From a virus, in IMG/VR virus record IMGVR_UViG_3300027141_000003, positions 45,913 to 109,912 of that record: 64,000 nt of DNA. One strand, written 5' to 3'. Of this stretch, positions 31,040 through 58,087 are shown piece by piece. The notes beneath the pieces are model-generated. The model was not told where the DNA came from, did no database searches, and was given only the letters and a program-made list of their open reading frames with translations. Each line of letters opens with the position of its first letter. Positions within the stretch are counted from its first letter, which is position 1. The position numbers were made by a program, and so were the translations under genes.

Positions 31040-32623
31040 TCAGTCGACTTGTCTTCCGTCTCCTTGAGCATTTCTTCCCTCTCCAGAAATATCGGGGGAA
31101 TTTGCAGACCTTTCAGAATCTCTAGCTCTGGTTTTTCCTGCCTGTGCTCTAACCTCTGCCTGTGCCTGTGGCTTTAACTCTACAACTTTATCTCCACCAT
31201 CAATTGGAACCATGCCCATTCTAATTCTTACTTCATTAGGAGTTACTACCTGCATCCTTAAATATCTTTCATCAATTTTAGACTGAGTGTCTTCGTCGGT
31301 CAAAGTAAGCTCATTAAATTTAAGAAGCAGGGCATCGGTCATTTCTTCAATAATTTTATTTAATTTCTTTTCTAAATTCATTTGTGCTGGGCGGCATACT
31401 TGCTCTCTAAATGTTTTATCGGCATCTCTGGCTACCGCTAAATTTACTCCCTCTGGAGTTCCAATTTTATTAATTGGCACACGGTGAGATAATAGAATTT
31501 CGTCTCTATTTGATTTACGATATACGTTAAATGAAGACTCTTGGGTTCCCGCCTCAATTGGCTCCATCTTAAATTCAACCTTTGAATCTGGTGAATCTGG
31601 AGGAAGTGGAATATATAGAGATCTATGGTTCTTGCCCCTCAGTCCAACTTGGAAGAACTCAAGCAATTTACGCTCTGACTCTGTAGAAAGCTTTGCACCC
31701 TTTACTGTAATAATGTAACGAGGCACCGCCTTATTCTCAAAGTAATCAAGGTTGTACTTACCAGCAAATTCATTTCCTGCCATTGCATTTGATGACGCTA
31801 CAATATCTGGGATACCGTAGTAGTTATTTGTAGGGGTGTACTTCTTAAGATGAATAATTTCGTTAGGTCTATCTAGTCCGCCTGCAATTGGATTCTCTGT
31901 TTCTTGATCTCCAAATGTACGGAAGAATACTGCCTTGCCATAAAGCAATTGAATAAATCCATCACGCAGTCTACGAATTCTCATAGTCTTTGCTGGAATG
32001 TGACCGATATATCCAATCTTGCCAGCAGATGTTCTGCCGATTTCAATATAGCCATTTCCTGTTGCTTCAACGTCTGTGTATGCTTTAATTAATGTCTCTG
32101 TAAATGTTTCTTCTTCATTGCAATTCTCAAGCCACTCGTATAAATCTTGACGTAGTCTATTTAGCTTTCTACGAGCTCTCTCTAATGATTTATCATCTGT
32201 AATATTATCAAACGCTTCTTGCGTTTTACGTGTTTCAACAAAGTCATGGCCAAGACCAACAATATTTGAAACCTTAGCATTAATTGCTGAATAGTTGTAT
32301 GGAGAAATTTCATAAATAGTTGATAGGTAATCTAGGTTATAAGGAGGCTCAACAAGATCAAACATTGCATAGCCAGTGACTGCTTGCTGCAATAGGTTTT
32401 GCTGTGTCTCTGTTCCGTCAAGACCCTGAAATCTTTTTTGTAGATCTCTATTCATCTTGCGACGAAATGCTGGGCTAAGCCCTGAAATTTTTGTTAGATC
32501 TTCTCCGCTCACCTTAAATAGGTCAGTAGTTGTTTCTTCTCTGGGAGTATTAAACTTCATCCAGTCCGCCACGTTTGAGACTACAATATCTTGTGAGTCA
32601 TCATCTTCTACAAATTTTGTCAT
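31040..32623 (-). CDS. portal protein
   Basis: TGNGYIEI, EIIHLK...YYGIP, YFENKAVP, HRVP and TPNEVR motifs. Confidence 0.93.
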   Translation of the reverse strand: MTKFVEDDDSQDIVVSNVADWMKFNTPREETTTDLFKVSGEDLTKISGLSPAFRRKMNRDLQKRFQGLDGTETQQNLLQQAVTGYAMFDLVEPPYNLDYLSTIYEISPYNYSAINAKVSNIVGLGHDFVETRKTQEAFDNITDDKSLERARRKLNRLRQDLYEWLENCNEEETFTETLIKAYTDVEATGNGYIEIGRTSAGKIGYIGHIPAKTMRIRRLRDGFIQLLYGKAVFFRTFGDQETENPIAGGLDRPNEIIHLKKYTPTNNYYGIPDIVASSNAMAGNEFAGKYNLDYFENKAVPRYIITVKGAKLSTESERKLLEFFQVGLRGKNHRSLYIPLPPDSPDSKVEFKMEPIEAGTQESSFNVYRKSNRDEILLSHRVPINKIGTPEGVNLAVARDADKTFREQVCRPAQMNLEKKLNKIIEEMTDALLLKFNELTLTDEDTQSKIDERYLRMQVVTPNEVRIRMGMVPIDGGDKVVELKPQAQAEVRAQAGKTRARDSERSANSPDISGEGRNAQGDGRQVD

Positions 32624-33024: not shown

Positions 33025-34770
33025 TTATATACTTTGTACCACGATCCAGTCGTTATCATAGTATTCTGGTGCTTCTTCTGTCACATTGATAGCTGGATCT
33101 ACGACTGAAGTAGAAGGTCTTCCACAATATAAATCAAAATGTGTGTCTACTTCTGTAATTGAAAGGGCTCTAGGGTATAAGGCAATATTATTATATAGAT
33201 TATCTGGCCCCCCAGAAGATTCATAATTAAATTTAAATACTCCCGTAATTGGAGATGCAAATACTAAAACTATGTGGTGAGGCTCTCCTGGGACCAGGAA
33301 ATTGTTTACATTTGTTTGCGATGTCTTATCTACCCCATTGACGTAAAGAGCGCTTATAGAGGCCTTAGAGACCGTTTGAGAGCCATTCCAGGCATACTTA
33401 GTGCCAGAGGCTGCGTGATAAAATAATGTATTTGCGCCATTAGTCTTAGGAGTAAAAAACATCTCTACTGTACTTATATTTAATCCAGTATTAGAATCAA
33501 ATCCATACCCAGACTTAGCCCTAATTCCATTATTGTAGTGTCTAATTAATGGTGAATAATTTAATGATCCGACTCTAAATTGACTATTAGATCCAATATA
33601 ACTATTTGAGTTGTCTGCATACACCAAGGATTCTCTATAGAACCTGATTGAAAAATAAGAAAGTCTAGGAAGGAACTTACTAGCATCTGTAGTAGACATT
33701 GTGATTTTTATATAAAGTAGCCCACTAGAATTAAATGATCCTTTTGTGTATTGTGGGATAGAGTCTCCATTTTCACACACTACATAATTAGTTCCATCTA
33801 TACTGGTTTGAACTGTAATTCCTAAGTCGTTCCGCCATTCAATTTTTGAATTTGTCAATCCACTTTCTGTTGGAATAAATAAAAAGTCTTCAATAATTAA
33901 TGTTTTTGAGATAGCGGTTTCAGTCGGAATAAAGGATACATATTGACCTACTTCATCATAATAAGTATTAGAATCTATTACCTCGTCCCAAGGCTTGGAT
34001 ACACCGTATATGTAATCAAAGTCCACTCTGTTATTTAAATCTGAGCAAGAAAACACTGTGCCATTTTCTGGGTGCGCCACATGAATTGGCTGTATGTAAT
34101 AATTGCCGTCATTGAAATGCTTTAATATCTTATCTCCTGTTAGCCCATATCTATATACCGCTGGAGCATCTACAATAAAGGAGTCAGACACATTTGAGGT
34201 TGGACCAATTTGTAAGTCTAACTGTGTATTAGTAAATTTAAATGAAGAGTCTATAGATTTAATTGCTACCTGCTTACCATCTATAAACAAGCTAATAGAA
34301 TCAACCGAATAAACTCCTGCTACGTGAATAGCTTTTTTGCTATAAAATAATGCCCATCTAATTTGCTCCGTACTGGAAATTTTAAACACTACATCTCCCT
34401 TTTCATAATATAAACCTATGCCGTCTGCAACATCTGCAAACAGAGGGGTTGATGTGGAAGATTGAATATCTTGACTTACCCATAGCTCTAAGGTAAAGTC
34501 ATTGTCTGAAGAGTATTTGTTTCCTAGCCCATTTGAAACAGATGAGCCATAGAAGTCTTTTGATGTTGGTAGTGTTATATAAGCAGTATTAGTTATTTTG
34601 GTTCCTGATCCGCCGCCTGCAATAATTGGCAACATGTTTGATGCGGGAGATCCCACATATGTAGCATTATTTCCACACCCTGAAATATCTGCGGCATTAG
34701 TCCCCGAAGTCTCATCCAGTGGCCAAAACCCAATTGGATAATCTTTGATAACCTTCAGTGTATACGTCAT
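33025..34770 (-). CDS. LamG/concanavalin-A-like virion protein
   Basis: PIGFWPLDETSGTNAADISG, FTLELWV, HVAGVY...LFIDG, and a second LamG-like unit (HHIVLVF...IALYPRALS). Confidence 0.8.
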   Translation of the reverse strand: MTYTLKVIKDYPIGFWPLDETSGTNAADISGCGNNATYVGSPASNMLPIIAGGGSGTKITNTAYITLPTSKDFYGSSVSNGLGNKYSSDNDFTLELWVSQDIQSSTSTPLFADVADGIGLYYEKGDVVFKISSTEQIRWALFYSKKAIHVAGVYSVDSISLFIDGKQVAIKSIDSSFKFTNTQLDLQIGPTSNVSDSFIVDAPAVYRYGLTGDKILKHFNDGNYYIQPIHVAHPENGTVFSCSDLNNRVDFDYIYGVSKPWDEVIDSNTYYDEVGQYVSFIPTETAISKTLIIEDFLFIPTESGLTNSKIEWRNDLGITVQTSIDGTNYVVCENGDSIPQYTKGSFNSSGLLYIKITMSTTDASKFLPRLSYFSIRFYRESLVYADNSNSYIGSNSQFRVGSLNYSPLIRHYNNGIRAKSGYGFDSNTGLNISTVEMFFTPKTNGANTLFYHAASGTKYAWNGSQTVSKASISALYVNGVDKTSQTNVNNFLVPGEPHHIVLVFASPITGVFKFNYESSGGPDNLYNNIALYPRALSITEVDTHFDLYCGRPSTSVVDPAINVTEEAPEYYDNDWIVVQSI

Positions 34771-34791: not shown

Positions 34792-35385
34792 TTACCTTTT
34801 GAAAAAGAATATGGGCACCATATACTTAGTTCCAGATATTGTTGGCTTTGGATCATGCAAAACTCCTTCTGAGGCAAATACAACTACGCTTCCAGCTTCT
34901 GGCTTTAATGATATGCCGTGATCTGGGAATTCTATTTCTCCGCCTTCGTAGTCATCATTTAAATACATAACCATTGAAACAGTAGATGTATGCTCTGCCC
35001 CATCGTATGCGTCTACATGCGCCCCCATATGAACACCAACATTATATTTATTTATACCAAAATAAACTGGTAAGTATCCTAGTTCTATTCCAGAACTAGC
35101 AGCATACTCTTCACCTATTGAGATTACATTTTGTGTAATCATAGAGCAAAGTTTGGCATTACTTCTATCTGCATCCGTAATGTTTTGAAACATATTTAAA
35201 AAGCATTTTTTTAGCTTCCCATAAGAAACATTACTATTTGATGCATTCCACTGTTCCCATTGTGATATTTGAGAAAAGGGACCCTGAAAGGCATCCATAT
35301 CTTCAATCTCTTTTACAAAGGATATCGGGTCTGCAATAACATTTTTATAGTAATGTATTTCAGGATGTAAAATTTCTTTAATCAT
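34792..35385 (-). CDS. 2OG-Fe(II) dioxygenase, prolyl 4-hydroxylase-like
   Basis: HVD...YLNDDYEGGE...H...KY; likely start MIKEI. Confidence 0.88.
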   Translation of the reverse strand: MIKEILHPEIHYYKNVIADPISFVKEIEDMDAFQGPFSQISQWEQWNASNSNVSYGKLKKCFLNMFQNITDADRSNAKLCSMITQNVISIGEEYAASSGIELGYLPVYFGINKYNVGVHMGAHVDAYDGAEHTSTVSMVMYLNDDYEGGEIEFPDHGISLKPEAGSVVVFASEGVLHDPKPTISGTKYMVPIFFFKR

Positions 35386-36085
35386 ATTTACCTTTATATG
35401 TTGGAATGTTGCCAACTTCTTGGCCCTTCTTCCACTCCTTATAGGTTTCTTCTTGTTCTGCTCTTGTTTGCTTTAATTCAGATTCCCACTCCGCTATCTG
35501 CTCTGGAGTGTAAACAGCATCTGCATTATCCCAAAAGGATCCAACCGTGTATCTTTCTGCATTTTTAACAGTAGTCACTTCATGCTCATTGCCATGCCCA
35601 CCTTTAAAGAAGGCCAATCTTCCTGGCTTTGCTTTGACCACTATATCGTGATGTTTAAAGTTTAGGTCCCCACCTTCAAAATTATCATTTAGATATAAGA
35701 ATCCAGCATACTTACTTTTATAAAATGCAGATGGGCTTCCGTCTTCATGTGTATTGTCTGAATGAAAACTAGCAAATGCTCCAATAACCCATTTTTGTGC
35801 ATGATAGCTTACCTCTGATAGCTCTCTACCAAAACACTCTTCTCCAGCTTTTTTAATTTTTTCCTTTAATTGAGAAAAGTAATCTGATGGCAGCCCAAAC
35901 AACAATAGGTTATCGTCATGTGGCCAGTAGCCCATGGCAAATGAGCCATAAAAAGAAATTTGGTTCCACTCTAAATGTCCTGCATTTACAATTCCGTCTA
36001 GGTATCCAATAATAGACTTACATTCCTCTTCTGTTATTAAATTATCAATAATAAAGACATCGTCTTTTAAAGCTGTTATTTCCAT
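35378..36085 (-). CDS. 2OG-Fe(II) dioxygenase, prolyl 4-hydroxylase-like
   Basis: HSD...YLNDNFEGGD...H...RY. Confidence 0.88.
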   Translation of the reverse strand: MEITALKDDVFIIDNLITEEECKSIIGYLDGIVNAGHLEWNQISFYGSFAMGYWPHDDNLLLFGLPSDYFSQLKEKIKKAGEECFGRELSEVSYHAQKWVIGAFASFHSDNTHEDGSPSAFYKSKYAGFLYLNDNFEGGDLNFKHHDIVVKAKPGRLAFFKGGHGNEHEVTTVKNAERYTVGSFWDNADAVYTPEQIAEWESELKQTRAEQEETYKEWKKGQEVGNIPTYKGKYD

Positions 36086-36927
36086 TAGCATTCCTTCTTT
36101 TCTGCTTTAGATACAAAATCTAAATGATCTTCTATTTCTTTTTTAGTTGGCTCAACCTTTTGGCCATCTTTAAACACTAAGTTTCCTCCATAAATGTCGG
36201 CGTCTATTCTTGCCTGTTCCATTTCGGCCCAACGTTTTGCCCCATACTTAAGCTGGTTAGCAAGCCACTCTTCTGATCCTGCATACGGGTAGATCATAAA
36301 GTTTCTAATAAGATACTTGTTACCTCTAGTAGCTGTTCTAACTCCGTGATAATAAGGCTCTCCAGATGGAAATACCATGATGTCTCCAGCCTCTGGTTTA
36401 TATGCAGGAACAAATTCCCCGTCTACATAAAATTCAATCTCTCCACCTTCATAGTCATCATTGATGTAAACAGTGCATGTTAAGAAAAATTGATTGCCTG
36501 GCATGTCTTTTTCGCTTTGCTTAAAATCTGTATGGTACTGCATTGTTAAATTATTTTTTAAAGCGTCTACATTTGTGTGGTATTTACAGAAAGAAGAAGA
36601 GCCAAGCTTGCAATCTTCTGGAAGATCAATTTTATACTTATCAATATAATCATCAATTGCTAAGTTATAGGCATCATATACTGTTTCTGCGGCCCAATAT
36701 TGCAGATCAAACTCTTCATCTTTACCCAATTGATCTTGAACCCCACCTTTAAATTTTGTGCTGGCATAATTACCGAAAGCACTCCAAGGGGTCCATGGGT
36801 TAAAGTATTTGTCTCCAGTATTGTTTTCTGTAGATTGAATTACTTCAAATATTTTCTTATGATCTGGTAGTAAGTTTTTGTAAACTTCAATTCTAGGATA
36901 TAGTGTTTTTGTTACAAGACTCGACAT
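36085..36927 (-). CDS. 2OG-Fe(II) dioxygenase, prolyl 4-hydroxylase-like
   Basis: HTD...YINDDYEGGE...HGV...KY. Confidence 0.88.
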   Translation of the reverse strand: MSSLVTKTLYPRIEVYKNLLPDHKKIFEVIQSTENNTGDKYFNPWTPWSAFGNYASTKFKGGVQDQLGKDEEFDLQYWAAETVYDAYNLAIDDYIDKYKIDLPEDCKLGSSSFCKYHTNVDALKNNLTMQYHTDFKQSEKDMPGNQFFLTCTVYINDDYEGGEIEFYVDGEFVPAYKPEAGDIMVFPSGEPYYHGVRTATRGNKYLIRNFMIYPYAGSEEWLANQLKYGAKRWAEMEQARIDADIYGGNLVFKDGQKVEPTKKEIEDHLDFVSKAEKKEC

Positions 36928-37595
36928 TATTTGCCTCTTCCCAACTTATCTATTGTCCAGAACCACGGAGAAGTGTATCTGGTGCCTTCTGTAATTATAT
37001 CAACACCGTGAATATAATTTAAATCTCCAGGGAAAAAATAGGCTGCTTTTTTCTTTGGCTTAAAAGCAACTTTTTGTTTAGGGAAATGCAACCTACCACC
37101 TTCGTAGTCTTCATTTAAATAAAAGATTGTTCCTAAGTCATACCAAGGGAAGTTACCTGGCTTGCCAGCATCTGGACCTTCATGTAGCTCTTTGTCGGCA
37201 TGGGGCCATTGCATTGATCCAACTGGCCATCTAACTAGACACGGTCCAGTAGGCGTTACCTCTACATCAAAATGTTCTTCTATAACTGGCTTTAATCTGT
37301 TAATGATTACTTCAAGCATTTCTACTACTTCTGGCCCTGTTTGATCTAAGGACTTCTTCGTAGCTACTCGGTCTTTCCAGACATTATGCTGGTAAATAAT
37401 TGTTCCGTTTTCGTTGTATACATCTTCGCCTGGATCCCAAGTTGTATTATTTTTAGCAAACTCTAGGAGGTAATCACACTCTTCATCTGTTAAAAAATTT
37501 TCAACTTCTACTATATTCTCTGGGCCTGCGCCAAAATATCCAGATGGTGTTATAGACGTTCTGTGATCTCTTATGTCGGAAATGTTTTTATCCAT
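36927..37595 (-). CDS. 2OG-Fe(II) dioxygenase, prolyl 4-hydroxylase-like
   Basis: NFLTDEEC, HAD...YLNEDYEGG...HGV...RY. Confidence 0.88.
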   Translation of the reverse strand: MDKNISDIRDHRTSITPSGYFGAGPENIVEVENFLTDEECDYLLEFAKNNTTWDPGEDVYNENGTIIYQHNVWKDRVATKKSLDQTGPEVVEMLEVIINRLKPVIEEHFDVEVTPTGPCLVRWPVGSMQWPHADKELHEGPDAGKPGNFPWYDLGTIFYLNEDYEGGRLHFPKQKVAFKPKKKAAYFFPGDLNYIHGVDIITEGTRYTSPWFWTIDKLGRGK

Positions 37596-37611
37596 TTATT
37601 ATATCCTTTTC

Positions 37612-38340
37612 TTATTCATACTTTTTGGGAACCCAAGTTTTTTGCTTATAAACTCCATATTTTACTTTTCCTAAACTATCTTCTCTATAAATTTTTGTAT
37701 GTGCTTCGTGGCTATTTGCCATTTCTTGTTCTGTAAACAAGTTAAATTCGGAAGACCAATTTTCTCTTTTGTAGGGGAAAATTTGTGCGTAAGGAGTTCC
37801 TTTTTTAATTATACCCTGAAAAGTATTTTTTATAAAAAACGGGATAAGCCCTGGGGCCCCGTACTTATCACTATCAATTATACCTCCTGTGGTCAAAAAA
37901 GGCAGCTCGAAATGATTTATAGGTTGCATTACAAGGGCGCTATAGCCCTTTGGTAAAGTGAACCCCCAGTCTGGGTACCAATGAAATCCTTGGTTGTAAT
38001 ATCCTTCTGGATAGTGGAATTGACCCATATGAGGCCTGCCTTCACAAAACCCCGCAAAACCTTGCTCTGGCTGAATATAAATACTATCGTTATATTTAGT
38101 AACCGCTACATCACATGGGGTTGTAAACATATATCCTGAAGAAAAAACATCATGTAATGCTGGACAAGATTTAAATCCAGGACCTTTGCTATTGTCTGGT
38201 GGTAAATCTATTACTGCGTCATTTTCATCAGTCCAATATTTGCTTGCATTTAAAAACCAATCTGGAGTAGTTTTTTTTGCTGGAGAAGGCACAGTATTTT
38301 TATCGTTATATGCCCTATTGGAATTAAAAACAATTTTCAT
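37612..38340 (-). CDS. DUF6065-related hypothetical protein
   Basis: PDWF...KSCPA...GY...P.D, TLPKGYS...P.N, IKKGTPYAQIFP; a divergent relative of the two upstream genes. Confidence 0.55.
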   Translation of the reverse strand: MKIVFNSNRAYNDKNTVPSPAKKTTPDWFLNASKYWTDENDAVIDLPPDNSKGPGFKSCPALHDVFSSGYMFTTPCDVAVTKYNDSIYIQPEQGFAGFCEGRPHMGQFHYPEGYYNQGFHWYPDWGFTLPKGYSALVMQPINHFELPFLTTGGIIDSDKYGAPGLIPFFIKNTFQGIIKKGTPYAQIFPYKRENWSSEFNLFTEQEMANSHEAHTKIYREDSLGKVKYGVYKQKTWVPKKYE

Positions 38341-39059
38341 TTATTTAGATTCTTAACATCTAGCTTAATTGATTTAACTTCATGCTCTCCTAGAGCATTA
38401 CCCATGTAGTCTACGGCATCTCTGTAGTAATCCGTCCACTTACCTTCGGCATTAGCTTTTTCAGCAGCAGCCATTGCTCCCTCAAGAGTAAGAGGGATAT
38501 CTCTTTTTAGAAAAGGAGCATCGTGTCCTTCTCCCAAATTAATTGTAGAATTATTTAATTGAGTAAGAGATATTGGCATTATTGCAATTATAGGATCATT
38601 TGCCTTTATTGTAATTGGTACAAATGGTCTTGTAATTTTCCATGCAACTGGGAGAGGCCCTTCAAAAAAAGATGTAGTTAAAATACTTGTGACTGCGCTG
38701 GCCCCATCTACAAAATGATTAGGAACTGGGAAAGATAAAAGGCTGTAGTCTTTATCCGTTACAAATCTAAGGTTGGTTTTAAAGTTAATTGTTGCGTGTC
38801 CTCTACCAGTTTCACAGTATTTTTCTCCTTCTAAAATTTTTACATTGTCTGGATAGGTGCTTGTTATTCCATCCCACATAAAGGTTATATTTTCAGGAAA
38901 AGACAATCCCCATCCTATTTGATTGCTAAGTGTAATTGGAAAACATCTATATGCATGCTTATGAGCAGTTTCATCCATCCAGTCTCTTTTTGCAGAAAGT
39001 GGTGTTATGTTTGCAGAAAATGAAGATCCTGAAACCTTATAGGCATTTAAATTAATCAT
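38337..39059 (-). CDS. DUF6065-like protein
   Basis: KRDWMDETAHKHAYRCFPITLSNQIGW...PVPN...WKITRP...YRDA; likely start MINL. Confidence 0.7.
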   Translation of the reverse strand: MINLNAYKVSGSSFSANITPLSAKRDWMDETAHKHAYRCFPITLSNQIGWGLSFPENITFMWDGITSTYPDNVKILEGEKYCETGRGHATINFKTNLRFVTDKDYSLLSFPVPNHFVDGASAVTSILTTSFFEGPLPVAWKITRPFVPITIKANDPIIAIMPISLTQLNNSTINLGEGHDAPFLKRDIPLTLEGAMAAAEKANAEGKWTDYYRDAVDYMGNALGEHEVKSIKLDVKNLNK

Positions 39060-39750
39060 TATTTTTTCCCCCTTCAATAACATAAAGACTTATTTTTTTT
39101 GTTTCGTGCTGGCCTACAACATTTCCATATTGGTCTAATCCGTCTCTGTACCAGTTTGTAAATCCATTTTTCGATAAACTAAATTCTTGCATTTTTTTCA
39201 TGTATTCTTCGTCATGTTTTAAATTGGGCACTTCTTTATTGTGCATTGTAATTGATGACTTATTCAATTCGGACAAAGATATCGGAATTATTGATGCTAC
39301 GGGTGTGCCAGCTTTAATGGTAATAACTTTATTTTTAGACAGAACCTTCCATACAACTTGAAGTCCTGCTGTATAAAAAGATGAAGATGTTATTGAAGTA
39401 AGGCATTGAACATCTTCTGCAATTTGATTTGGAACGGGCATAGTTAAAATACTAAAATTTGAATCTGTTTTAAATATTAAATTTGTTGCAAAACATATTA
39501 CTGATTGCCCACGTTCAAAAAAACAATATTCTTCTCCGCTTATTACTTCTATCCCAGACTCATTTCCATTATCATTTAAAACAAATGAAATATCTTTTGG
39601 GAATGATATACCCCATCCAAGTTCATTTGATATAGTCAATGGCGGACAGTTGTATGCATATGGATGAGTTTGCATCCATTCTCTCTGTGGCTTTAATGGA
39701 GATAGTATTGCCTCTAAGCCACCTGTTCTATAGCAATCAAAGTCTATCAA
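39052..39750 (-). CDS. DUF6065-like protein (paralog)
   Basis: QREWM...AYNCPPLTISNELGW...PVPN...WK...YRDG; aligns by eye with 38337..39059. Confidence 0.7.
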   Translation of the reverse strand: MIDFDCYRTGGLEAILSPLKPQREWMQTHPYAYNCPPLTISNELGWGISFPKDISFVLNDNGNESGIEVISGEEYCFFERGQSVICFATNLIFKTDSNFSILTMPVPNQIAEDVQCLTSITSSSFYTAGLQVVWKVLSKNKVITIKAGTPVASIIPISLSELNKSSITMHNKEVPNLKHDEEYMKKMQEFSLSKNGFTNWYRDGLDQYGNVVGQHETKKISLYVIEGGKNND

Positions 39751-40491
39751 CTACATATCCCTTTGTTCGGCAGGCTTAAATCTTTTCCCTTCAACCAAGT
39801 GGTTGTACTCGTAGCTAGCTTCGATTTCTCGATACATTGGAGTATGAGGTGCTTCTTGATAGTCTAACATTGTTACAATTGCATATTTAGTTCCTGATTT
39901 AACTGGCATTGCTGCATGAGAATATATATAAGAAGACGGGAAAAGATATAGGTCTCCAGCTTTAGGTTTTACTGTAACGCCAAGCTTGTCAAAAAATAGC
40001 TCTCCGCCTTCATAATCATCATTGATATACCCTACTGAAGACAATACGCATACGTAAGAATATCCATGATCGGAATGGACATTAAAATGTTGGTTTTTGC
40101 CGTACTTAATAAAATTAAACGACTCCCAATAATTTAACGGAGGAATTTGAAACATTTGCATATAGTCTGCTACTGCCGACATTTGAAGACTTTTTGCTTC
40201 TCTCCAAATTTGCCTTAATTCAATTTCATCTTCAGTAAAATCTTTTGGGTCAACATGAGTTCCATTACCCAGCATTAATGATCCGCCATCGTTTTCTTTA
40301 ATTTTAAAATCCCAAGCATCTCTGTAGTCTTTATTTAATGTATCGTATCCAGTCTGGGCTAGATTCCAATGCTTCTTGCCCTGTGTCTTAGATAGCACTG
40401 ACTCCAGCCTTTGATCTAAATTATATTCTTTTTTAAAAACATCTCTGTATACAACAATTCCAGGATATATTGTTTCTGCATTTGGCAACAT
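39751..40491 (-). CDS. 2OG-Fe(II) dioxygenase, prolyl 4-hydroxylase-like
   Basis: HSD...YINDDYEGGE...FPSSYIYSH...KY. Confidence 0.88.
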   Translation of the reverse strand: MLPNAETIYPGIVVYRDVFKKEYNLDQRLESVLSKTQGKKHWNLAQTGYDTLNKDYRDAWDFKIKENDGGSLMLGNGTHVDPKDFTEDEIELRQIWREAKSLQMSAVADYMQMFQIPPLNYWESFNFIKYGKNQHFNVHSDHGYSYVCVLSSVGYINDDYEGGELFFDKLGVTVKPKAGDLYLFPSSYIYSHAAMPVKSGTKYAIVTMLDYQEAPHTPMYREIEASYEYNHLVEGKRFKPAEQRDM

Positions 40492-41118
40492 TTAATTAAC
40501 CACCTTTTTGTGTTTTCTATCAACATAGTCATCGTATTCTTTTGAATGAGCATCATCATTATAGTCTAACATTGTTACAAAAGAGTACTTCACCCCAGAA
40601 TCCACTGGAAGGGCCACATGAGAATAAATAAAGGAAGACGGGAAAATTATTAAGTCTCCTTCATTAGGCTCTATATGTAAATCGAACTTAGGAAAAAAAA
40701 GACCTCCGCCAGTATAGTCAGAATTAGGATATCCAACTAATGATACGGTAGATTTATAAGACCATCCATCGTCAGCATGCTCTTTAAAAAATTGATTTGG
40801 ATAATACTTTACAACATTTGTCCATTCCCAAAAATCCATTTTAATGCTGTACATTTCACAAAAATCTTCTACTTGATCTTTTTGGCAACTGTATATGTCA
40901 TTGTATATATCTAAATATTCTGGCTTATCGTAAATCTTTAAGTCTTGACAATTTCTATACTCTAAATCTTGATCTTCTAAAGATACCGTTGCAATATCCC
41001 ACTTTAAAATATTATCGTTTACCTTATCTTCAATTCTTTGAATTAAATTTAATTCTTTAGGGAAGGCATTTGGATATTTCCAGATGCCTGGATATAGCTG
41101 TTGTTTGTTATATATCAT
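40492..41118 (-). CDS. 2OG-Fe(II) dioxygenase, prolyl 4-hydroxylase-like (paralog of 39751..40491)
   Basis: HAD...YPNSDYTGG...FPSSFIYSH...KYS..TMLDY. Confidence 0.88.
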   Translation of the reverse strand: MIYNKQQLYPGIWKYPNAFPKELNLIQRIEDKVNDNILKWDIATVSLEDQDLEYRNCQDLKIYDKPEYLDIYNDIYSCQKDQVEDFCEMYSIKMDFWEWTNVVKYYPNQFFKEHADDGWSYKSTVSLVGYPNSDYTGGGLFFPKFDLHIEPNEGDLIIFPSSFIYSHVALPVDSGVKYSFVTMLDYNDDAHSKEYDDYVDRKHKKVVN

Positions 41119-41124
41119 AAATAT

Positions 41125-41153
41125 ATAATATCATTTTAAACAGTCCTAGTCAA
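41125..41153 (-). promoter_or_regulatory. leaderless promoter of the dioxygenase/DUF6065 operon
   Basis: TTGACT-17nt-TATTAT-6nt-ATG (41118). Confidence 0.7.
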
Positions 41154-41157
41154 TAGG

Positions 41158-42750
41158 CTATGCTAGGGTTTTGCAGCCGTTGTAAGCCAGCATTGATTCT
41201 GCTGCTATTAGTCCCCATGGCTCTCTATAAAACAAAAATACCTTGGTTTCTTTTTCAACAACTTCAAGTGATTCAATATTGATAAATTCTTCTATACCAT
41301 CTTTATAAAATACAATTTGATCATTTTCTTTAAGATTTGATGTTGTTGCAAACTGATATCTACCGCCTCTTTTTATTAAAATCTGCTCAACTGTAGACAA
41401 GTCGTTTTTTTCTTCATTGTTTATTCTAATAACAGTAGTATTGGTCTTTTCGTAAATATTAAAGACCGTAGACTCAACATAAGATACGTTGTTCAATGTA
41501 TCTGCTCTCCAGTTCTCTACTAGTTCCAAACAGTTCCTCGTAACTTCGCCTATGCTACAAGCGTCGTCTCCTTCTGGGCTATCGTCAAAGTTTACTGTTA
41601 ACAAAATATCTCCGTTAACGATTTCTTTGGCTTTTTTGTAGCCATTTTTTGTTAAGACATTGGTATCTTCTGGAATACAAAAAGTTGGCGGCGCAAAGAA
41701 TCTAGGTGGAGAAAAGAATCTAGGTGGTGAGAAGAATCCTGGTGGCCCAAAGAATCCTGGTGGCGAGAAGAATCCTGGTGGAGAAAAGAATCTTGGTGGT
41801 GAGAAGAAGCCTGGTGGAGAAAAGAATCTAGGCGGTGAGAAGAATAGGGGAGGTGAGAAAAATAGGGGAGGTGAAAAGAATCTAGGAGGAGCGAAGAATA
41901 GGGGAGGGGCAAAGAATAGAGGTGGAGAAAAGAATCTAGGCGGAGCGAAGAATAGAGGTGGGCTGAAGAATAATGGTGGGCTGAAGAATAATGGTGGGGA
42001 GAAGAATAATGGTGGGGAGAAGAATCTTGGCGGGGCAAAAAAATCAGGTGGGGCAAAGAATAGAGGTGGTGAAAAGAATGTAGGAGGGGAAAAGAATGTT
42101 GTAATTTGATTTGAGGATCTTGGCAAAGACGTTCCATTTGCATTTACTGCAACTACAGAATAAGTTTGAACTGTTCCCATTGTTTCTCTAATGTTAATAG
42201 TTGTTGTTGTACCAGTAACTTCATAAGGAGAAGCTAATCCTCCTGGCTGAGCCGCCGTATCGGTAGATGTAATAATATATTTTGTTAAAGGCTTTCCACC
42301 AGAAGTTGATGCAGACCAAGAAACAACATCCTGACCTCTTAGGTCTTCTGTTGTGTGTCCTGGTCCAGTTGTACTAGAAACTGCAGTTACTGATGCTGGA
42401 GCAGCAGGTATGGTTGTAAATAAAACAGGAGAAGAGGCGGTTGATGCATCTGATTGTCCATTTGCGTTGGTTGCCTTTACAGTTGCCGTTCCTGTTGCAC
42501 CTTGTGGAATACCAACAATTGTAATTGGAGAAGATGCTCCAATATCCGAAAATGTTCCTTGATCAGTTACTAAAGTAGCGGTGTAGCTTACAATTGGTAG
42601 CTGGTTTGGTGGATACTCAAAAGAGATTATAGCTGAAGCATTGTTAAAAGGCCTGTTTGTTCCAACGTCTGTTACAACAACATTTATAGGTGGTATGGGA
42701 AGTTCAAAGTCTCCAGAGAGCTGAGATTTTCTACCAACTTTTTTACCCAT
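41158..42750 (-). CDS. Fn3-Fn3-(FF[SAG]PPx)23-Hint domain protein
   Basis: Two Fn3-like domains (VKATNANGQS, VVAVNANGTS), 23 hexapeptide repeats (aa 219-356), and a Hint/intein-like domain from Cys358 (CIPEDTNVLTKNG...GD) to Asn524 (MLAYN). Confidence 0.85.
   Translation of the reverse strand: MGKKVGRKSQLSGDFELPIPPINVVVTDVGTNRPFNNASAIISFEYPPNQLPIVSYTATLVTDQGTFSDIGASSPITIVGIPQGATGTATVKATNANGQSDASTASSPVLFTTIPAAPASVTAVSSTTGPGHTTEDLRGQDVVSWSASTSGGKPLTKYIITSTDTAAQPGGLASPYEVTGTTTTINIRETMGTVQTYSVVAVNANGTSLPRSSNQITTFFSPPTFFSPPLFFAPPDFFAPPRFFSPPLFFSPPLFFSPPLFFSPPLFFAPPRFFSPPLFFAPPLFFAPPRFFSPPLFFSPPLFFSPPRFFSPPGFFSPPRFFSPPGFFSPPGFFGPPGFFSPPRFFSPPRFFAPPTFCIPEDTNVLTKNGYKKAKEIVNGDILLTVNFDDSPEGDDACSIGEVTRNCLELVENWRADTLNNVSYVESTVFNIYEKTNTTVIRINNEEKNDLSTVEQILIKRGGRYQFATTSNLKENDQIVFYKDGIEEFINIESLEVVEKETKVFLFYREPWGLIAAESMLAYNGCKTLA
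41683..42096 (-). repeat. 23 x 18-bp coding tandem repeat (FF[S/A/G]PP[L/R/G/T/D])
   Basis: Counted directly; codons are synonymously diverged between copies. Confidence 0.95.
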
Positions 42751-42763: not shown

Positions 42764-43264
42764 TTAAACAGTTAAGTCACCAAATAGAAGCCAGGTGTTG
42801 GCGTCTCGTTTTAATAGTGTTGCCATTGACCACTGGAATCTTAATTTGTTGCCTGGAGTGTAATTTAAAACTACACCTGCGCCAGCCACAACGGTTGTTT
42901 GGCCTGTTCCAGATTGCAAAATATCTAAAGTTGTTCCTACGGGGAAATTTACAACAGAGTCTGCTGGTATTGTAAAATTATTTGCAACTTGCATTCTAAT
43001 GTCTACAATTGTATCTCTTTGATTTAAGTTATTAAGCGTATGCGGGAAATAATAAGTATTAATTGGGGTTAAAGATTGTACGGCTGTTTTGCTCTGAATT
43101 CCATCTTGAAATACTACAGTTCCGCCTGCAAGATTTAAAGTGCCAGCCAAATTAACTGTTCCAGCTAAGGTTGTTGTTCCTTGAAATCCAGCTCTGTCAT
43201 TCACTGATAAGGACTTGACTTGCAAGTCCTCATCAGTATTGAATTTACCTTTATTGAGGGCCAT
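42764..43264 (-). CDS. small virion fibre/adaptor protein
   Basis: C-terminal TIPADSVVNFPVGT...Q.GTGQ...W.LFGDL domain typical of fibre C-termini. Confidence 0.65.
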   Translation of the reverse strand: MALNKGKFNTDEDLQVKSLSVNDRAGFQGTTTLAGTVNLAGTLNLAGGTVVFQDGIQSKTAVQSLTPINTYYFPHTLNNLNQRDTIVDIRMQVANNFTIPADSVVNFPVGTTLDILQSGTGQTTVVAGAGVVLNYTPGNKLRFQWSMATLLKRDANTWLLFGDLTV

Positions 43265-43273: not shown

Positions 43274-46200
43274 TTATGCCTGGGCTTCTGTCCAAGATAG
43301 TCTTCCGAACACAGATGCTGTTGATGTTCCAATATTTTGAACAACGATTGTCAAAACATCTGGTCCGTCAGGATAAATTCCAACGTTAGAGGTTGTTCCT
43401 CCACCACCCAAGATTGAGTTTCCTAAATCACGAACATTTGATAGGTCGATTGAGTTTGCTCCAGATCCTAAGAAGAATCCTGCTGTAACTTCACCACCTG
43501 TAACTGTTGTAGATCCACCAGAGTAATCTGAGATCTGAGATAGTGATGAGTTAGCAATACCTGCTACGTTACCAACTGCGTTTGTCCAAGTAGTTGCGGA
43601 GCTTGAAACTCCATTCAAAATTGCTGTAACAAGTAGGTTTGCTGCGCCCGAAGCCGTAGTAGCAGTTACATCAAGAGCCTTTAGGGCTAGCTGCATTCTG
43701 TTAATAAGTTCACGTTGTCCAAATGCTGCGGCAATACCGTTATCAACTGAAGGAGCAAGTCTTATTGCAAAGAGCGCTCTGCTTTGTCCTGATGCTACAG
43801 AAGTTGAAGTTCTTTGTCCGTAAGTAAACACGAGGGATTTATCTTCATCAAATCCGCCGTCCATAATTACTGAAGTTCCCCAGTGTGATATAGAAGCTGC
43901 AAAGCTTGGGTAAGCTAGCTCTACCATTGTTGGTGACACTGGATCTAATGTAAATAGTTGAGCGCTTGTAGCTCCCATAGGGACTGCAATGACTCCTGTT
44001 GGGTTTGCCGATAGTGCTGCAAAGCTAGTCTTGAGTGTTAGTCCATTTATAGAGTGAATAAATGTGCCTTCTGGGTAAGCTGCGCTAATTAATCTCATAC
44101 CAGCTTGTAGATTAGCCACGCTAGAAACTGTTCCTTCAGAAGAACCAACAGCTTGAGTTATGCTTAAGTTAGCTTCTCCTGCTCTACCTCTTGTAAGACC
44201 AGTAAATGATGTATCTGATTTTGCAGAGTAATTTACATACTCTACAGCAGATTCATTTTTAATTGCTAGAGTTCCAGCTTGTGGGAATCCTGCTGTTGAC
44301 CTTACATTTAGAGCTAAGTCTGTTGTCAAAACAGTTTGAGTTGTTGCTGTGTATGCTGGAGTAGTTGAAGATTCATAGCGTCCTGGAAGGTTTCCGCTTC
44401 GCATATATGCTTCTGTGTTAACGTTATTGTTAGGCATCTTGTGGCAATAAACAACGTCACCCTTTGGGCCTCTTACTCCCCATCTTACGAAACCTGCACC
44501 ATACCATGTGTAGTCAATATAGAACATCTGCATCTTTGAAAGATCGATATTATATTGGGATGGTCCTGTTCCATCTAGCTTGTCCATATTAAATTCGGAC
44601 TGTTTAATTCTAGTTTCTTGTGTTTTCGATATAATTGCAAATGATGTCGATGCGCCTCTGTAAGCAGGGCTAATAGTCATAGATGCATCAGTTCCAATTC
44701 CAACTACCTTATAGGATTGTCCTCTAATTACAACGTAATCTCCTGGTATTAGCTGCTTTCCAAACGCAGTTGGGAAGTAAGCATCTGACTGAGTAACTGT
44801 TGCTGAGTTTTGAGTAACGCTTACTTTACCAGAAAGCTGGAAAGTTGAATTTCTTTTAACTGCAGATAAATTTTGACCGTCATACTCCCAGAATAATCCA
44901 TTTTGATTGTCAAACATTCCTAGTCTGTTTTGGCATCCATACCAAGACTCTACAGATACAAAGAATGCTCCTGTAGCAAGTGAGGATGATGGGGTAGCTG
45001 GGGCTTCATAAGTAAACTTATCGTCTGAAAGAACATTTACAATTGCAAATGATCCATTGTATGCGGCTTGATCACATCCACCAACTTTTACTATTGTTCC
45101 TGGTTGCAGATTGTGTTTTTCTTTTGTTTGAACTGTTACTATAAGACCAACGCTTGAAATACTTTCAACTCCTGCGTATGGCTTTAAAATTGTACCAGAT
45201 GATACCTGAAGTCCTTTACCAGATTGATATCTAAAATATCTTCTAGTCTGTCTAATACATGATGCGTAGTTTGATGAAGCATTTGTGCCAAAGAGCACTC
45301 CTCCATCATTTGGTCTATGAGCAAAAGTAGATTGAGGTCTTACGTAAATTACCATTGGGCCTGCAAGAGTTCCCGTTGGGGCCGCATCTGCATAGTAAGA
45401 AAATGTTGATGGGCCAGTAATTTGAGCAACTTCCTGATTTCCATTTGGAGGATTAGTTGATGCTGTAGATCCTAGCACAACAATTTCATTTCCAAGAGCA
45501 AGTCCGTGAGGAACTTGTGTTGTTACAGTTATCTTTCTTCCACTATATGTAAATGATGTTGGAAGGCCACCAATTGATGCTCCAGTAAAAAGATCTCCCT
45601 GGGTAATAAGAGTTTTATTAGGATCAAATATAGCTGTTATACCAGTTCTATTTACTGCGCTTGCAGCGTATGTAAATGTTGTGGTTCCACCGCCAGATTC
45701 AATCACAAAGTTTCCATTTGCAGCGGTTAAGTATGTGTCAACTACGCTAATTGGAGTTCCGTTTGCTGGGGCTGCGCCTGATGATAGGGTTACTGAAACT
45801 GTTCTTCCTAAAGCAGCGTATGTAATTGAAGAAATATTAGCAATAGGGGTTGGTCGGGCAAAAGAAAATGGCTTGTTGTTATATAGCCCTAGATTTTCCC
45901 ATTTTGTTTGCTGAATACCATATTCAAAGTCGGTGTCAATGAGTGCTTTAGGCTGAGTTACTCTTAGCTTATTTGTTGTATCCAGCAAAGTTTCTGCTGG
46001 CATAAATGTTTCGTTGGCATCATCAATTGTGATTTGGATCTTATCGTTAGAAGACATCGATGCAGTGTTGTATTCTAGAACAAGTGTCGTGTTCTCTACC
46101 ATTGCGGTGCTTGTGCTTGTATTGTATGCAGTACATCCTAAGCTAGGATCTGAGAAGTTATAAATAACCTGATTTGTTGTTACGTTTGTAATCAACAGCA

Positions 46201-46291
46201 GTCTTTCTCTCAAAATTGTCTTTGGAATTGAGATCGTTCTCGTTGAAGGTGTAAATGTGTAGCTTGTCTCTAGTAATACTTTTCTTGCCAT
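43274..46291 (-). CDS. large virion structural protein (fibre/baseplate-like)
   Basis: 1005 aa; YTFTPS...LLLITNVT...IYNFSDP, IDTDFEYG, RQTRRYFRYQSGK and WTEAQA motifs seen in aquatic phage structural proteins. Confidence 0.7.
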   Translation of the reverse strand: MARKVLLETSYTFTPSTRTISIPKTILRERLLLITNVTTNQVIYNFSDPSLGCTAYNTSTSTAMVENTTLVLEYNTASMSSNDKIQITIDDANETFMPAETLLDTTNKLRVTQPKALIDTDFEYGIQQTKWENLGLYNNKPFSFARPTPIANISSITYAALGRTVSVTLSSGAAPANGTPISVVDTYLTAANGNFVIESGGGTTTFTYAASAVNRTGITAIFDPNKTLITQGDLFTGASIGGLPTSFTYSGRKITVTTQVPHGLALGNEIVVLGSTASTNPPNGNQEVAQITGPSTFSYYADAAPTGTLAGPMVIYVRPQSTFAHRPNDGGVLFGTNASSNYASCIRQTRRYFRYQSGKGLQVSSGTILKPYAGVESISSVGLIVTVQTKEKHNLQPGTIVKVGGCDQAAYNGSFAIVNVLSDDKFTYEAPATPSSSLATGAFFVSVESWYGCQNRLGMFDNQNGLFWEYDGQNLSAVKRNSTFQLSGKVSVTQNSATVTQSDAYFPTAFGKQLIPGDYVVIRGQSYKVVGIGTDASMTISPAYRGASTSFAIISKTQETRIKQSEFNMDKLDGTGPSQYNIDLSKMQMFYIDYTWYGAGFVRWGVRGPKGDVVYCHKMPNNNVNTEAYMRSGNLPGRYESSTTPAYTATTQTVLTTDLALNVRSTAGFPQAGTLAIKNESAVEYVNYSAKSDTSFTGLTRGRAGEANLSITQAVGSSEGTVSSVANLQAGMRLISAAYPEGTFIHSINGLTLKTSFAALSANPTGVIAVPMGATSAQLFTLDPVSPTMVELAYPSFAASISHWGTSVIMDGGFDEDKSLVFTYGQRTSTSVASGQSRALFAIRLAPSVDNGIAAAFGQRELINRMQLALKALDVTATTASGAANLLVTAILNGVSSSATTWTNAVGNVAGIANSSLSQISDYSGGSTTVTGGEVTAGFFLGSGANSIDLSNVRDLGNSILGGGGTTSNVGIYPDGPDVLTIVVQNIGTSTASVFGRLSWTEAQA

Positions 46292-46295: not shown

Positions 46296-49200
46296 TTATT
46301 CTCCTAAGTGTATATCCACTGCCCTAAATGGATAAAGTGATTTTTTAGCTGTCTGATTATTCGGGCCCGACATGTATCTTGCTTCAAACTTGGATCCTAC
46401 TGGAACTGGTTCTCCAAACTGTACGAATCCATCATTATCAAATAAATACCCCTCGGACTGAATTGGACTTAGCCAATGAGTGCTTTGGTTTCCCAATACT
46501 TGTAGTATACCATTAATTGTTATTAAAAGCTTGTATGGGTTTGTTGGGGTAAAATTTGAACCATCATATTTTAATTGGAATCTTGATTCAGACCCGTCGA
46601 ATTCATCAGAAATATCGTCTATAGGTAATATATCAGATCCAACGGCATCAGAAAGAGCTGCGGTTACGTATGCCCTGTTTACAGCATGCCCATCTTCTGT
46701 AGGAGCTACTACAGATATAGGGGCTGTGCCAAAATTGACACCAGTAATAGTAGGACTTGTTAGTGTTTTATTTGTAAGCGTTTGTGTACCAGTAAGAGTT
46801 ACCACCCCTGGTAAATTATTTGTTAAAGGATCAATTGTTTTGTTAGTAAGAGTTTGGGTTCCAGTTAATGTGGCTATACCAACAAGTGTGTTGCTTGCGG
46901 AACTAATTGTTTTATTAGTAAGTTCCTCAGTGCTATTTGGAAGTACTACTCCAACCAATTGGTTATTTGTGACATTAATTGTTTTATTAGTAAGAGTTTC
47001 AGTGCCAGTAAGAGATACAAAATCATCATCAGTTAGTGCAGTATTAAATTGAGCAAGTGTACCTGTCAATGTATTGCTAGCTAGACTTATACTTTTATTG
47101 GTGACTAAGTCAGTGCTATCTGGAAGGAGTACTCCAACAAATGTGTTGTTGCTTGCGCTTATTGTTTTGTTGGTTAAAGTCTGGACATTTGCTTGTCCAA
47201 CAATCGCACCTGATGCACCGTGGGCTTGTGTTAGGGAAGCGTGTCCCGTGACCTCTGCTGATGCAGCTGATGCTGTAATTGCTGCTACATCTTTAACAAA
47301 TTCAGTTGTTGCAATTTTATTGCTATCGTCAGTTGATGCTTGAGTTACAGCTTGAGTTGCAGATGGAAGAATAACAGTCCCAGTAAATGTTGGTGCATCT
47401 AATGTAGCTTTAAGTCCTAGATCTGTAGTTAATCCTGATATCTTAGACTGTGCAATTGCTGCTGTTGCAGAAACATCTGCATCTACAATTGTTCCATCAA
47501 GAATCATAGCTGAAGTTACTGTTCCTGTTGGAAGAGTTACTGTTCCAGTAAATGTTGGAGAAGCAAGTGGCGCTTTAGTTCCTACTAGTGTAGTTAGAGC
47601 AGCAGAAGCTGTATCATCTGCAACCATTAAATCTTGTAATTCTTTTAATGTGTCATATGCTGCTCCTGCACCATTAGTTAGATCTGATACTACAGACTTA
47701 ACATATGCGGTTGTTGCAACCTGTGTTGTATTTGTTGAAGAAGCTGCTGTTGGCGCCGTTGGAATTCCAGTTAATGCTGGAGAAGCAAGTGGGGCCTTAA
47801 AATCAAGTGCTGTCTGAGTGGCAGTTGAAATGGGCTTGGCAGCATCTGTTGTGTTGTCTACGTTTGCTAAACCAACATCAGACTTAGTTATACCAGTTGG
47901 GGTATTAATTGTTGGCGAATTTAAAGTTTTGTTAGTTAAGGTTTGAGTACCAGTTAAAGTGGCTGCTCCAGTAATCGTATTGCTTGCAGTATCAATTGTT
48001 TTGTTTGTAATAATCTGAGTGCCAGTTAAAGTGGCTACAGTTGGGTCAATCTCTAAGGTTATTGTGTTATTTGTTACTGCAGAAGTAATTCCTGTTCCAC
48101 CTGCAACGGTTACAGTATCTGTTAACAAACTTACTGTATCTGTTCCAGTGTCTCCAGCTATAGAAAGAGCGGTTGCAAGGGCAGCTGTTGAGGCCGCTGT
48201 TAGACGTCCCTGTGCATCTACTGTAAATGTAGGAATTGCAGTTGAAGATCCATATGAACCCGCTGTTACCGCTGTATTGTCAAGATCTATTGTAATGGTA
48301 TTTGCTACGTCATCGTATGTTTTTGTAAGAGCAACTCCTGCAACAATTGCTGTATTTACTGCATCTTGTGCTAGCTCTGTGATTGCAGAAGAATCTGCCT
48401 TGAGGTTTAAAGCTGTTTGGGTAGCTGTAGATACAGGCTTATTTGCGTCTGACGTGTTATCAACATTTGCAAGCCCTACATCAGATTTTGTAATCCCAGT
48501 TGGGGTGTTAATAACTGGAGATGTTAAAGTTTTATTAGTAAGAGTTTCTGTTCCTGCAAGTGTCGCAAGATCTGCGTCAGTAACTGATGTATTGAATTGT
48601 GCAATTGTTCCTGATACTGTATTTGAGCCAAGATCAACTGTCTTATTTGTAAGAGTTTCTGTGGCATTTTTTAATAGAGTACCGTTTAAATATAGAGACT
48701 TTCCTGAAGCAAGGTCTATGTTTTCTGATGAAGTCCATGCGTCTGTAGCGTCTACCCAGTTAAGTGTCTTATCTGTTGTACCCTTTAATGTTATACCGCC
48801 ACCATTAGCGGTTGCATCTGTTGGAGTTGCTGTATCTCCAAGGACAATATTCTTGTCTTCAACCACAAGATTAGTTGAGTTAAGATTTGTCGTAGTTCCA
48901 TTTACAGTCAAGTCGCCAGATATTGTTAAATTAACCGCAGTGGCTGTTCCTGTTAATGCTGGTGAGGCTAGTGGAGCCTTGAGATCAAGGGCGGTCTGAG
49001 CTGCAGTTGATATTGGCTTTAGTGCGTCAGTTGTATTGTCAACATTTGAAAGACCAACATCGCTTTTTGTAATTCCAGTTGGTGTATTAATTGTTGGAGA
49101 TGTAAGGGTTTTATTTGTAAGTGTCTGTGTGTTGGTTGTACCAACTACGGCGCCTGTTGCGCCATGTGCTGCTGTAAGATCTGTGTGTGCTGTAATATCT

Positions 49201-55653: not shown

Positions 55654-55738
55654 GTTTTCTTTCTGGTTGACTGGCTTGACAGGCTTATCCTATCAATGCT
55701 ACTATTATAGTTCGTTATCTCTAGAGGAGGAAATGCCA

Positions 55739-58086: not shown

Positions 58087-58087
58087 G

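Follow-up and report, generated by a model that had tools for sequence, protein, structure and literature searches.

A candidate substrate for a phage oxygenase array: the conserved association of an FFxPPx repeat protein with prolyl-hydroxylase-like and DUF6065-type genes

Arrays of genes for 2-oxoglutarate (2OG)/Fe(II) oxygenases have been noted in aquatic phages since at least 2010, and the guesses made at their function include DNA repair, balancing of 2OG and the synthesis of secondary metabolites (PMC3037559; PMC2938197). Few unexplained gene sets are commoner in these phages. In cyanophage Syn9, a tandem dioxygenase array, gp41-gp54, includes a dUTPase-fold protein that has a conserved Cys (Iyer, Abhiman, de Souza and Aravind, 2010, Nucleic Acids Res 38:5261; PMC2938197). 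Iyer et al. proposed secondary-metabolite synthesis for the Syn9 array and named no protein substrate there; in bacteria, collagen-like and tail-collar proteins were proposed as substrates of co-encoded dioxygenases (PMC2938197). Here we analyze a window of 64,000 nucleotides from an uncultured lake-type phage (bases 45913-109912 of IMG/VR virus record IMGVR_UViG_3300027141_000003; coordinates below are window positions), in which nine abutting genes, for six prolyl 4-hydroxylase (P4H)-like oxygenases (D1-D6) and three DUF6065-type proteins (U1-U3), follow a gene for a Phe/Pro repeat protein, REP. The locus thus offers an adjacent candidate substrate gene for such an array. We favor, with a probability of roughly 0.55, the reading that the oxygenases hydroxylate the repeat tract of a fibre-associated virion protein, with the DUF6065 proteins as their partners and a Hint domain as a removable cap.

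The window array and that of Syn9 (NC_008296: 15000-60000, locus L355, 6069-28145) are alike in that each is a tandem array with a dUTPase-fold member placed directly after tail-fibre genes, gp32-gp40 in Syn9, and gp43 of Syn9 is homologous to U3 (E 1.7e-9). The Syn9 array differs in having two tryptophan halogenases, a JmjC/MINA member and no Pro/Phe repeat protein, whereas the window array is paired with an FFxPPx-Hint protein. The gp32-gp40 segment contains very Gly-rich proteins (111 of the 316 residues of gp36 are Gly; gp38 and gp39 are further examples) and no Pro/Phe tract. In cyanophages, too, such arrays may have fibre-module proteins as their targets.

Chlorovirus PBCV-1 resembles the locus in combining a virus-encoded P4H-like enzyme with Pro-rich repeats of the same virus as candidate substrates. 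The PBCV-1 enzyme reportedly acts on (PAPK)n-type peptides, and its structure (5c5t) is among the weak Protein Data Bank (PDB) matches of D3. PBCV-1 differs in having one enzyme rather than six to eight, and has no gene adjacency, DUF6065 partner or Hint cap. The reference list of PMC7019647 includes Eriksson et al. (1999, J Biol Chem 274:22131) for the PBCV-1 P4H, and also an unpublished amino-acid analysis that found no hydroxyproline in PBCV-1 particles. Procollagen shares with the locus a periodic Pro-rich tract, hydroxylases of the same superfamily (P4H, prolyl 3-hydroxylase and lysyl hydroxylase) and a C-terminal domain, the C-propeptide, that is removed after its work. Bacterial and prophage collagen-like fibre proteins likewise have a periodic, Pro-rich structural tract, and the counterpart of the removable domain in one relative of REP (L099) is an S74 chaperone. 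Bacterial operons that combine beta-hydroxylase-type dioxygenases with sulfotransferases (PMC2938197) are alike in having fibre-like neighbors that were proposed as substrates, and a DUF6065-Stf0 sulfotransferase fusion is found here; they differ in their oxygenase families and substrates and in being cellular rather than viral, and the substrate role is a proposal there as well. No description of the repeat-array pairing was found in the literature searched, and a full-text search for DUF6065 and the repeat strings returned nothing relevant. The original prediction had likewise cited no description of the pairing; the type of array, with its dUTPase-fold member, has been known since 2010 (PMC2938197), a precedent that the prediction did not include.

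The association of the repeat with the enzymes is observed far beyond the window. A bare DNA pattern for three FFxPPx units, indifferent to the enzymes and to any other domain, was used to scan IMG/VR and gave 112 unique repeat open reading frames (ORFs). An oxygenase or DUF6065 gene lies within 3 kb downstream in 75 of the 85 ORFs that have at least 1.5 kb of downstream sequence, and a fibre gene of the type of g166, the gene upstream of REP, lies directly upstream in 81 of 83. In the reverse test, with DUF6065 as the probe, the repeat was found in all 42 loci having at least 2.5 kb upstream. The predicted adjacency of the repeat to 2OG-FeII_Oxy_3 and DUF6065 genes is therefore upheld in both directions. 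Across about 60 loci, with REP relatives down to about 30% identity, the genes are ordered fibre, REP, two oxygenases, two DUF6065-type genes, four oxygenases, g581 and portal.

A trio of repeat protein, D2/D3 and U2 also follows a fibre gene in contigs of 105-205 kb, from genomes with an estimated size of about 205-210 kb. The repeat protein of this jumbo group is short (about 110-180 aa). Next to it come D3, encoded on the other strand, then D2 and U2, and no portal gene lies nearby. No homologue of the portal of the window phage is detectable in the group, one record of which is 97% complete, and g581 is absent from the lineage, in which the trio persists. Of the PF13640 (2OG-FeII_Oxy_3) genes counted there, five of seven and six of nine lie within a few kb of a repeat tract. 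Other rearranged layouts exist as well (for example L180 and L099). A gene trio that is retained while order, strand and phage type change usually marks a functional unit, and these data support the repeat protein and the oxygenase and DUF6065 genes as a conserved unit. A possible tracking of enzyme content by repeat chemistry, in which U3 is missing from six of seven cases with tetrads as against four of 54 with hexads only, probably reflects a single clade and is not counted as evidence.

REP (530 aa; 41158-42750, minus strand) has the architecture originally predicted for it, Fn3-Fn3-(FF[S/A/G]PPx)x23-Hint, the tract being evident from the sequence and the fibronectin type III (Fn3) and Hint domains from the fold. 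An AlphaFold2 (AF2) model built with 30 homologues has two confident beta-sandwiches and a confident C-terminal domain. The former are tandem Fn3 domains (residues ~15-218; 42097-42708, minus strand; pLDDT >90) by Foldseek (E 1e-10, TM up to 0.65) and by VIA (Z ~14); the Pfam fn3 model matches a homologue (L039, 45.8 bits) and has no match in the window copy. Between them and the C-terminal domain lies the candidate substrate tract (residues 219-356; 41683-42096, minus strand), in which 23 tandem hexapeptides supply 46 Phe and 46 Pro. F, F, P and P are invariant in these units, position 3 is Ser in 16, Ala in six and Gly in one, and position 6 is L, R, G, T or D. All but one of the 23 18-mers of the tract are distinct; different synonymous codons serve for Phe and for Pro, and Ser has codons of two families, TCN and AGC. 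It is thus the protein sequence that is constrained, and the repetition is no artefact at the DNA level. No other Pro/Phe-rich repeat protein is encoded in the complete 110-kb genome.

Homologues down to about 30% identity have the same pattern, in which F/F/P/P never change, position 3 is small and position 6 is free, and FFPP tetrads are intermixed in the tracts of some lineages. A small position 3 combined with a free position 6 is incompatible with a collagen triple helix. Collagen differs further in that the FFxPPx tract has no Gly-X-Y period and is one third Phe. Its period is six (FF, small, PP, any), Gly does not recur at every third residue and SPPPP is absent; the tract is not a member of the collagen or extensin type, although it may function like those proteins. 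In one locus (L055, 1253-2379), the repeat gene is split by a change of frame within the tract, the other frame reading HHCSL...; the cause is a sequencing error in the repeat or else a genuine frameshift.

The bodies that carry the tract vary. They consist of Fn3-Fn3, of a short N-terminal peptide or of fibre-like proteins of 700-900 aa, such that tract-bearing proteins range from about 110 to 900 aa, with the tract invariably as the final structural element. It is followed by a Hint domain, by a few residues, by a small Cys-rich knot, by a stop codon (...PPSFK*) or, in L099, by a Peptidase_S74 domain (39.4 bits; cut-off 22) that starts right after ...PPGFK. S74 domains are intramolecular chaperones that fold trimeric phage fibres and spikes and then cut themselves off at their first Ser. 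Two unrelated self-removing caps, together with ORFs that stop at the tract, point to a mature protein that has the tract at its end and to the tract as a segment of a fibre. It is probably oligomeric.

The C-terminal domain of REP (residues 358-530; 41161-41679, minus strand) has a Hint (bacterial intein-like) fold. Over residues 355-524, VIA places it closest to Clostridium thermocellum 2lwy (Z 14.4; root-mean-square deviation (rmsd) 2.2 over 132 residues), and further matches include several inteins (among them the TvoVMA intein, Z 14.0), Tetrahymena BIL2 (6tmm, Z 14.0) and Hedgehog (1at0, Z 13.4). Cys358, from which the domain starts, lies one Phe after the last tract unit and aligns with residue 1 of inteins, the position of the nucleophile. 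Like bacterial intein-like (BIL) and Hedgehog Hint domains (Z 13-14), the domain has its Cys1 directly after the cargo and has no endonuclease and no real C-extein. A Hint layout of this kind predicts N-terminal cleavage through a thioester. The window copy differs from BIL and Hedgehog domains in its motifs, with TVEQ in place of TxxH and an end that reads AYN-GC, YN replacing the terminal His-Asn. In more distant homologues TKEH and a final His-Asn (THN) are retained, or Ser1 is used; L039, L047 and L050 read TKEH, QH and ...HN. The Pfam Hint and intein models have no match in the window copy and weak matches in its relatives.

The nine genes after REP are arranged as had been predicted from the ORFs, D1 (40492-41118), D2 (39751-40491), U1 (39052-39750), U2 (38337-39083), U3 (37612-38340), D3 (36927-37595), D4 (36085-36927), D5 (35378-36091) and D6 (34792-35415), all on the minus strand. 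Five of the six oxygenases pass the PF13640 gathering cut-off of 27 bits (D1 36, D2 48.3, D4 39.2, D5 37.8 and D6 46 bits), and D3, with 26.0 bits, falls just under it and matches phrog_61 (7e-17). The predicted HxD...H iron triad is present in all six, H114, D116 and H167 being invariant in a six-way alignment (HAD in D1 and D3, HSD in D2 and D5, HTD in D4, HVD in D6), and the 2OG-binding residue is, again as predicted, Lys in D1, D2, D4 and D6 and Arg in D3 and D5, followed by an invariant Tyr. D2 and D3 are the core members, found in all lineages including the jumbo one. Their closest solved relatives are the P4H of Bacillus anthracis (3itq/5hv0; E 3.5e-5 each), with weaker matches to P3H1, LH3, PiuC and Chlamydomonas P4H (CrP4H). 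It is by such likeness only that D1-D6 are considered putative peptidyl-prolyl hydroxylases. Weak matches to Tet_JBP were obtained for two of the oxygenases (E 0.0014 and 0.022). The paralogues are 17-43% identical to one another, and each keeps its own orthologues and a fixed place in the order across the ~60 loci, all with HxD...H and K/R. Old paralogues with their own orthologues in fixed order fit the earlier suggestion that the six would carry out different reactions rather than provide gene dosage. Two more PF13640 genes lie in tandem outside the window, far from the repeat gene (G000:C1:14660-15520).

DUF6065 is represented by U1 (PF19541, 88.3 bits), an extra copy with orthologues seen only in the closest relatives (L014/L192), and by U2 (106 bits), which is core and occurs in all lineages; the PF19541 gathering cut-off is 26.6 bits. 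The divergent U3 has no Pfam match, but phrog_7084 (7e-32 for U3) is common to U1, U2 and U3. One Cys is invariant across the family, C47 in U2, and U3 keeps it in an alignment with 30 representatives of the U1/U2-type profile. Searches of the PDB with the U2 sequence gave no match, and the fold search alone was successful. The model of U2 (pLDDT 88) superimposes on dUTPase 1dun with a VIA Z of 10.2 (rmsd 2.9 over 109 of 120 residues); the top 21 VIA rows are dUTPases, viral dUTPase-like proteins or dCTP deaminases, Z drops to about 4 from rank 24, and Foldseek gives a dUTPase-type fold at E 7e-4. U1 and U2 are without the acidic residues of motif III, and U3 has only a motif-III-like IDSD.Y (in GGIIDSDKYG) and a motif-IV-like YAQI (YAQIF), where bacterial members have G[IV][IV]ETDW. 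No match to PF00692 (dUTPase) was found in the genome at E 0.1, and no canonical dUTPase is present. The DUF6065 proteins are thus modeled with a dUTPase/dCTP deaminase fold, but by sequence they are not dUTPases.

The family extends well beyond phages. A profile search of 1.84 billion representatives returned 1,773 DUF6065 relatives; the genome scan was made with a narrower alignment, since the broad one was too divergent for it. Of the top 150 representatives, the 18 longest include seven fusions with 2OG-FeII_Oxy_3, two with Cupin_8/JmjC and one each with an AraC-type helix-turn-helix (HTH_18) domain and a Stf0 sulfotransferase (bacterial representatives P0236 and P0216). Bacterial contigs, the longest of 786 kb, carry some of the fusions, and the oxygenase fusions show that DUF6065 and 2OG oxygenases of the protein type also work together outside phages. 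The sulfotransferase and HTH fusions could mean that DUF6065 binds a small ligand. These patterns suggest that DUF6065 is an oxygenase partner, for which the roles of adaptor, of substrate or ligand binding and of second catalyst are all candidates.

A model can be put forward to explain how these components may act together. REP would be a fibre-associated virion protein with the tract as its working part, and its N-terminal portion (the short conserved peptide and the two Fn3 domains) would probably attach to the fibre protein that has the g166-type end domain. The P4H-like oxygenases would hydroxylate the tract while the chain is still unfolded, different paralogues taking different positions, most plausibly the two prolines. 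The phenylalanines had also been predicted to be targets; nothing points to them. The DUF6065 proteins, with their dUTPase fold, would be dedicated partners of the oxygenases. The Hint domain would then remove itself at Phe357|Cys358, leaving a mature protein that ends with the tract. The logic resembles, by analogy, that of procollagen, with its Pro-rich repeat, prolyl hydroxylases and removable C-terminal propeptide. The role of the tract as substrate, the residues modified, the cleavage by Hint and the presence of REP in the virion are inferred.

Several observations weigh against this model. Hydroxylation of prolyl or phenylalanyl residues in the tract is a prediction from comparison, and the AF2 model offers no confident monomer structure for the tract (pLDDT 39-50). 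The REP Hint domain has neither the block-B His nor the penultimate His, which makes self-cleavage in the window copy uncertain. Ten of the 85 repeat genes have no enzyme gene nearby; for most of the ten, a further repeat gene is present in the contig or locus. The raw counts of co-occurrence are inflated by common descent; only two groups are clearly separated by their portals, and several layouts are rearranged. The Syn9 array has no Pro/Phe tract, and such arrays therefore do not need the repeat. Stand-alone DUF6065 genes occur in about 600 bacterial genomes with no conserved neighbors, and among 80 bacterial DUF6065 loci we found no recurrent neighbor, no FFxPP and no P4H-like match, the last with phage-derived hidden Markov models that are maybe too narrow. 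DUF6065-like genes are also found beside nucleotide-metabolism and replication genes in other viruses. Thus, U3-like phrog_7084 genes of about 50 haloarchaeal tailed viruses adjoin thymidylate synthase and family-B DNA polymerase (PolB) genes, and that of cyanophage S-RIM4 adjoins ribonucleotide reductase (RNR); no repeat protein or oxygenase array is present in either context. Examples of these U3-like genes are found in Halorubrum tailed phage 7 (L087, 7848-8738) and in S-RIM4 itself (L086, 9001-9795).

A role in small-molecule chemistry or host metabolism has been proposed in print both for the Syn9 array (PMC2938197) and for the 2OG oxygenases of cyanophages at large (PMC3037559). Applied here, the array would make or alter a small molecule or a free peptide, or reshape host metabolism (for example 2OG levels), and the boundary of the fibre genes would be a place that tolerates cargo. 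Syn9, with its array and DUF6065 homologue and no Pro/Phe tract, fits this proposal, and so would a small-ligand-binding domain of the kind that the DUF6065 fusions to sulfotransferase and AraC-type HTH could signify. It leaves unexplained, however, why repeat and array stay adjacent despite changes of order, strand and genome type, and why the repeat was present in 42 of 42 DUF6065 loci. The locus showed no gene for a peptide synthetase, a halogenase or a transporter, the flanking genes examined being those for fibre, lectin-domain and portal proteins, and the genes overlap within a late virion block; we consider a small-molecule or host-metabolic role unlikely. Alternatively, the enzymes could act on another virion protein, such as the g166-type fibre or g581, or on a host surface protein, with the FFxPPx protein serving as a fibre accessory (adhesin, spacer or assembly factor). 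The adjacency of fibre and repeat (81 of 83) is at least as tight as that of repeat and enzymes, the Syn9 array follows fibre and Gly-rich 'fibre assembly' genes, and tail-collar and collagen-like proteins are the substrates proposed by Iyer et al. in bacteria (PMC2938197). Yet P4H-type enzymes favor extended Pro-rich segments, of which the tract is by far the richest in the genome, and g581 is absent from the jumbo lineage, where the trio persists. Another virion protein or a host protein as the target appears quite unlikely.

An action on nucleotides or DNA, by base hydroxylation or hypermodification, with nucleotide-binding dUTPase-fold proteins, is suggested by the fold of DUF6065 (Z 10.2), by the motif-III-like IDSD..Y of U3 and the G[IV][IV]ETDW of bacterial members, by the homologues that other viruses have next to thymidylate synthase and PolB or to RNR, by the weak Tet_JBP matches and by a genome that has no canonical dUTPase. 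The oxygenases nevertheless score best as P4H-like and not as Tet/JBP or AlkB, U1 and U2 are without the acidic motif, none of U1-U3 matches the Pfam dUTPase model, and the genes belong to the virion block and not to the replication genes; such an action would be improbable. The original prediction had further allowed for a system like those of ribosomally synthesized and post-translationally modified peptides (RiPPs), in which the 23 units would be multicopy core peptides released after tailoring. Repeated cores beside many tailoring enzymes and a domain of self-cleaving type are what such a system would have. The locus has no protease, export or transporter genes, however, and no leader or recognition element; no cleavage motifs separate the units, position 6 varies freely, the tract is C-terminal in proteins with Fn3 or large fibre-like bodies of up to ~900 aa, and the S74 fibre-folding chaperone follows it in one lineage. 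A RiPP-like role is accordingly the least probable of those considered here, and very far from likely.

Should hydroxylation of the tract be correct, enzymatic post-translational tailoring of a phage fibre protein would be shown, FFxPPx would be a new structural repeat, DUF6065 would gain a role as the partner of protein hydroxylases and Hint-mediated maturation in a virion protein would have an added case. A more elaborate proposal, which is possible but doubtful as a whole, is that phages have a collagen-like pathway. A C-terminal Phe/Pro helical segment would be hydroxylated, at several of its positions, by three to eight dedicated oxygenases on a trimeric dUTPase-fold adaptor and folded or activated by a disposable Hint thioester or S74 domain, to give a tailored, possibly adhesive or covalently anchoring, receptor-binding tip. 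If such a pathway exists, fibre-module proteins would be a substrate class for the orphan arrays of aquatic phages, including that of Syn9.

The source record (109,912 bp) has direct terminal repeats and is rated complete. GenBank phages contain no relative of the locus or of REP by megablast and tblastn, and none of U2 either, and the phage therefore has no cultured reference. Nearly all genes of the region are on the minus strand and are ordered, in the direction of transcription, as fibre genes, g166, REP, the nine enzyme genes, g581, a small ORF, and the portal, protease and capsid genes. The array lies between fibre/REP and g581/portal and is therefore embedded in the virion gene block, with which its abutting or overlapping genes share their strand. 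The fibre genes encode a protein of 1098 aa with an N-terminal Mtd_N (major tropism determinant N-terminal) domain (53 bits; 46296-49592, minus strand) and a second fibre protein (43274-46291, minus strand). The small protein g166 (42764-43264, minus strand) is homologous to tail-fibre C-terminal domains, with PHROG matches to the C-termini of minor tail and tail fibre proteins. On the other side of the array, g581 (581 aa; 33025-34770, minus strand) has a ConA-like lectin domain (Laminin_G_3, PF13385, 37.9 bits) and is not a terminase; its place between the array and the portal gene (31040-32623) is kept in all relatives that share the portal.

REP and D1 are separated by a gap of 39 nt, which contains a promoter-like site (41125-41153, minus strand), TTGACT-17-(TG)TATTAT, that ends 6 nt before the ATG of D1. 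The good match to a -35 and an extended -10 element makes a leaderless promoter ahead of D1 plausible and is suggestive only; promoter-like sites in the region number 43, as against 37.8 +/- 5.8 in shuffled sequences, and show no excess. A GT4-type glycosyltransferase gene (54658-55653, minus strand) had been noted in connection with a possible glycosylation of the repeat. Its score is marginal (28.3 bits; cut-off 27) and nothing ties it to the module. The gene is back to back with one for a lysozyme-like SLT_3 protein (55652-56299, plus strand), and genes for tRNA-Arg(TCT) and tRNA-Asn(GTT) are found at 58087-58159 and 59526-59599, respectively.

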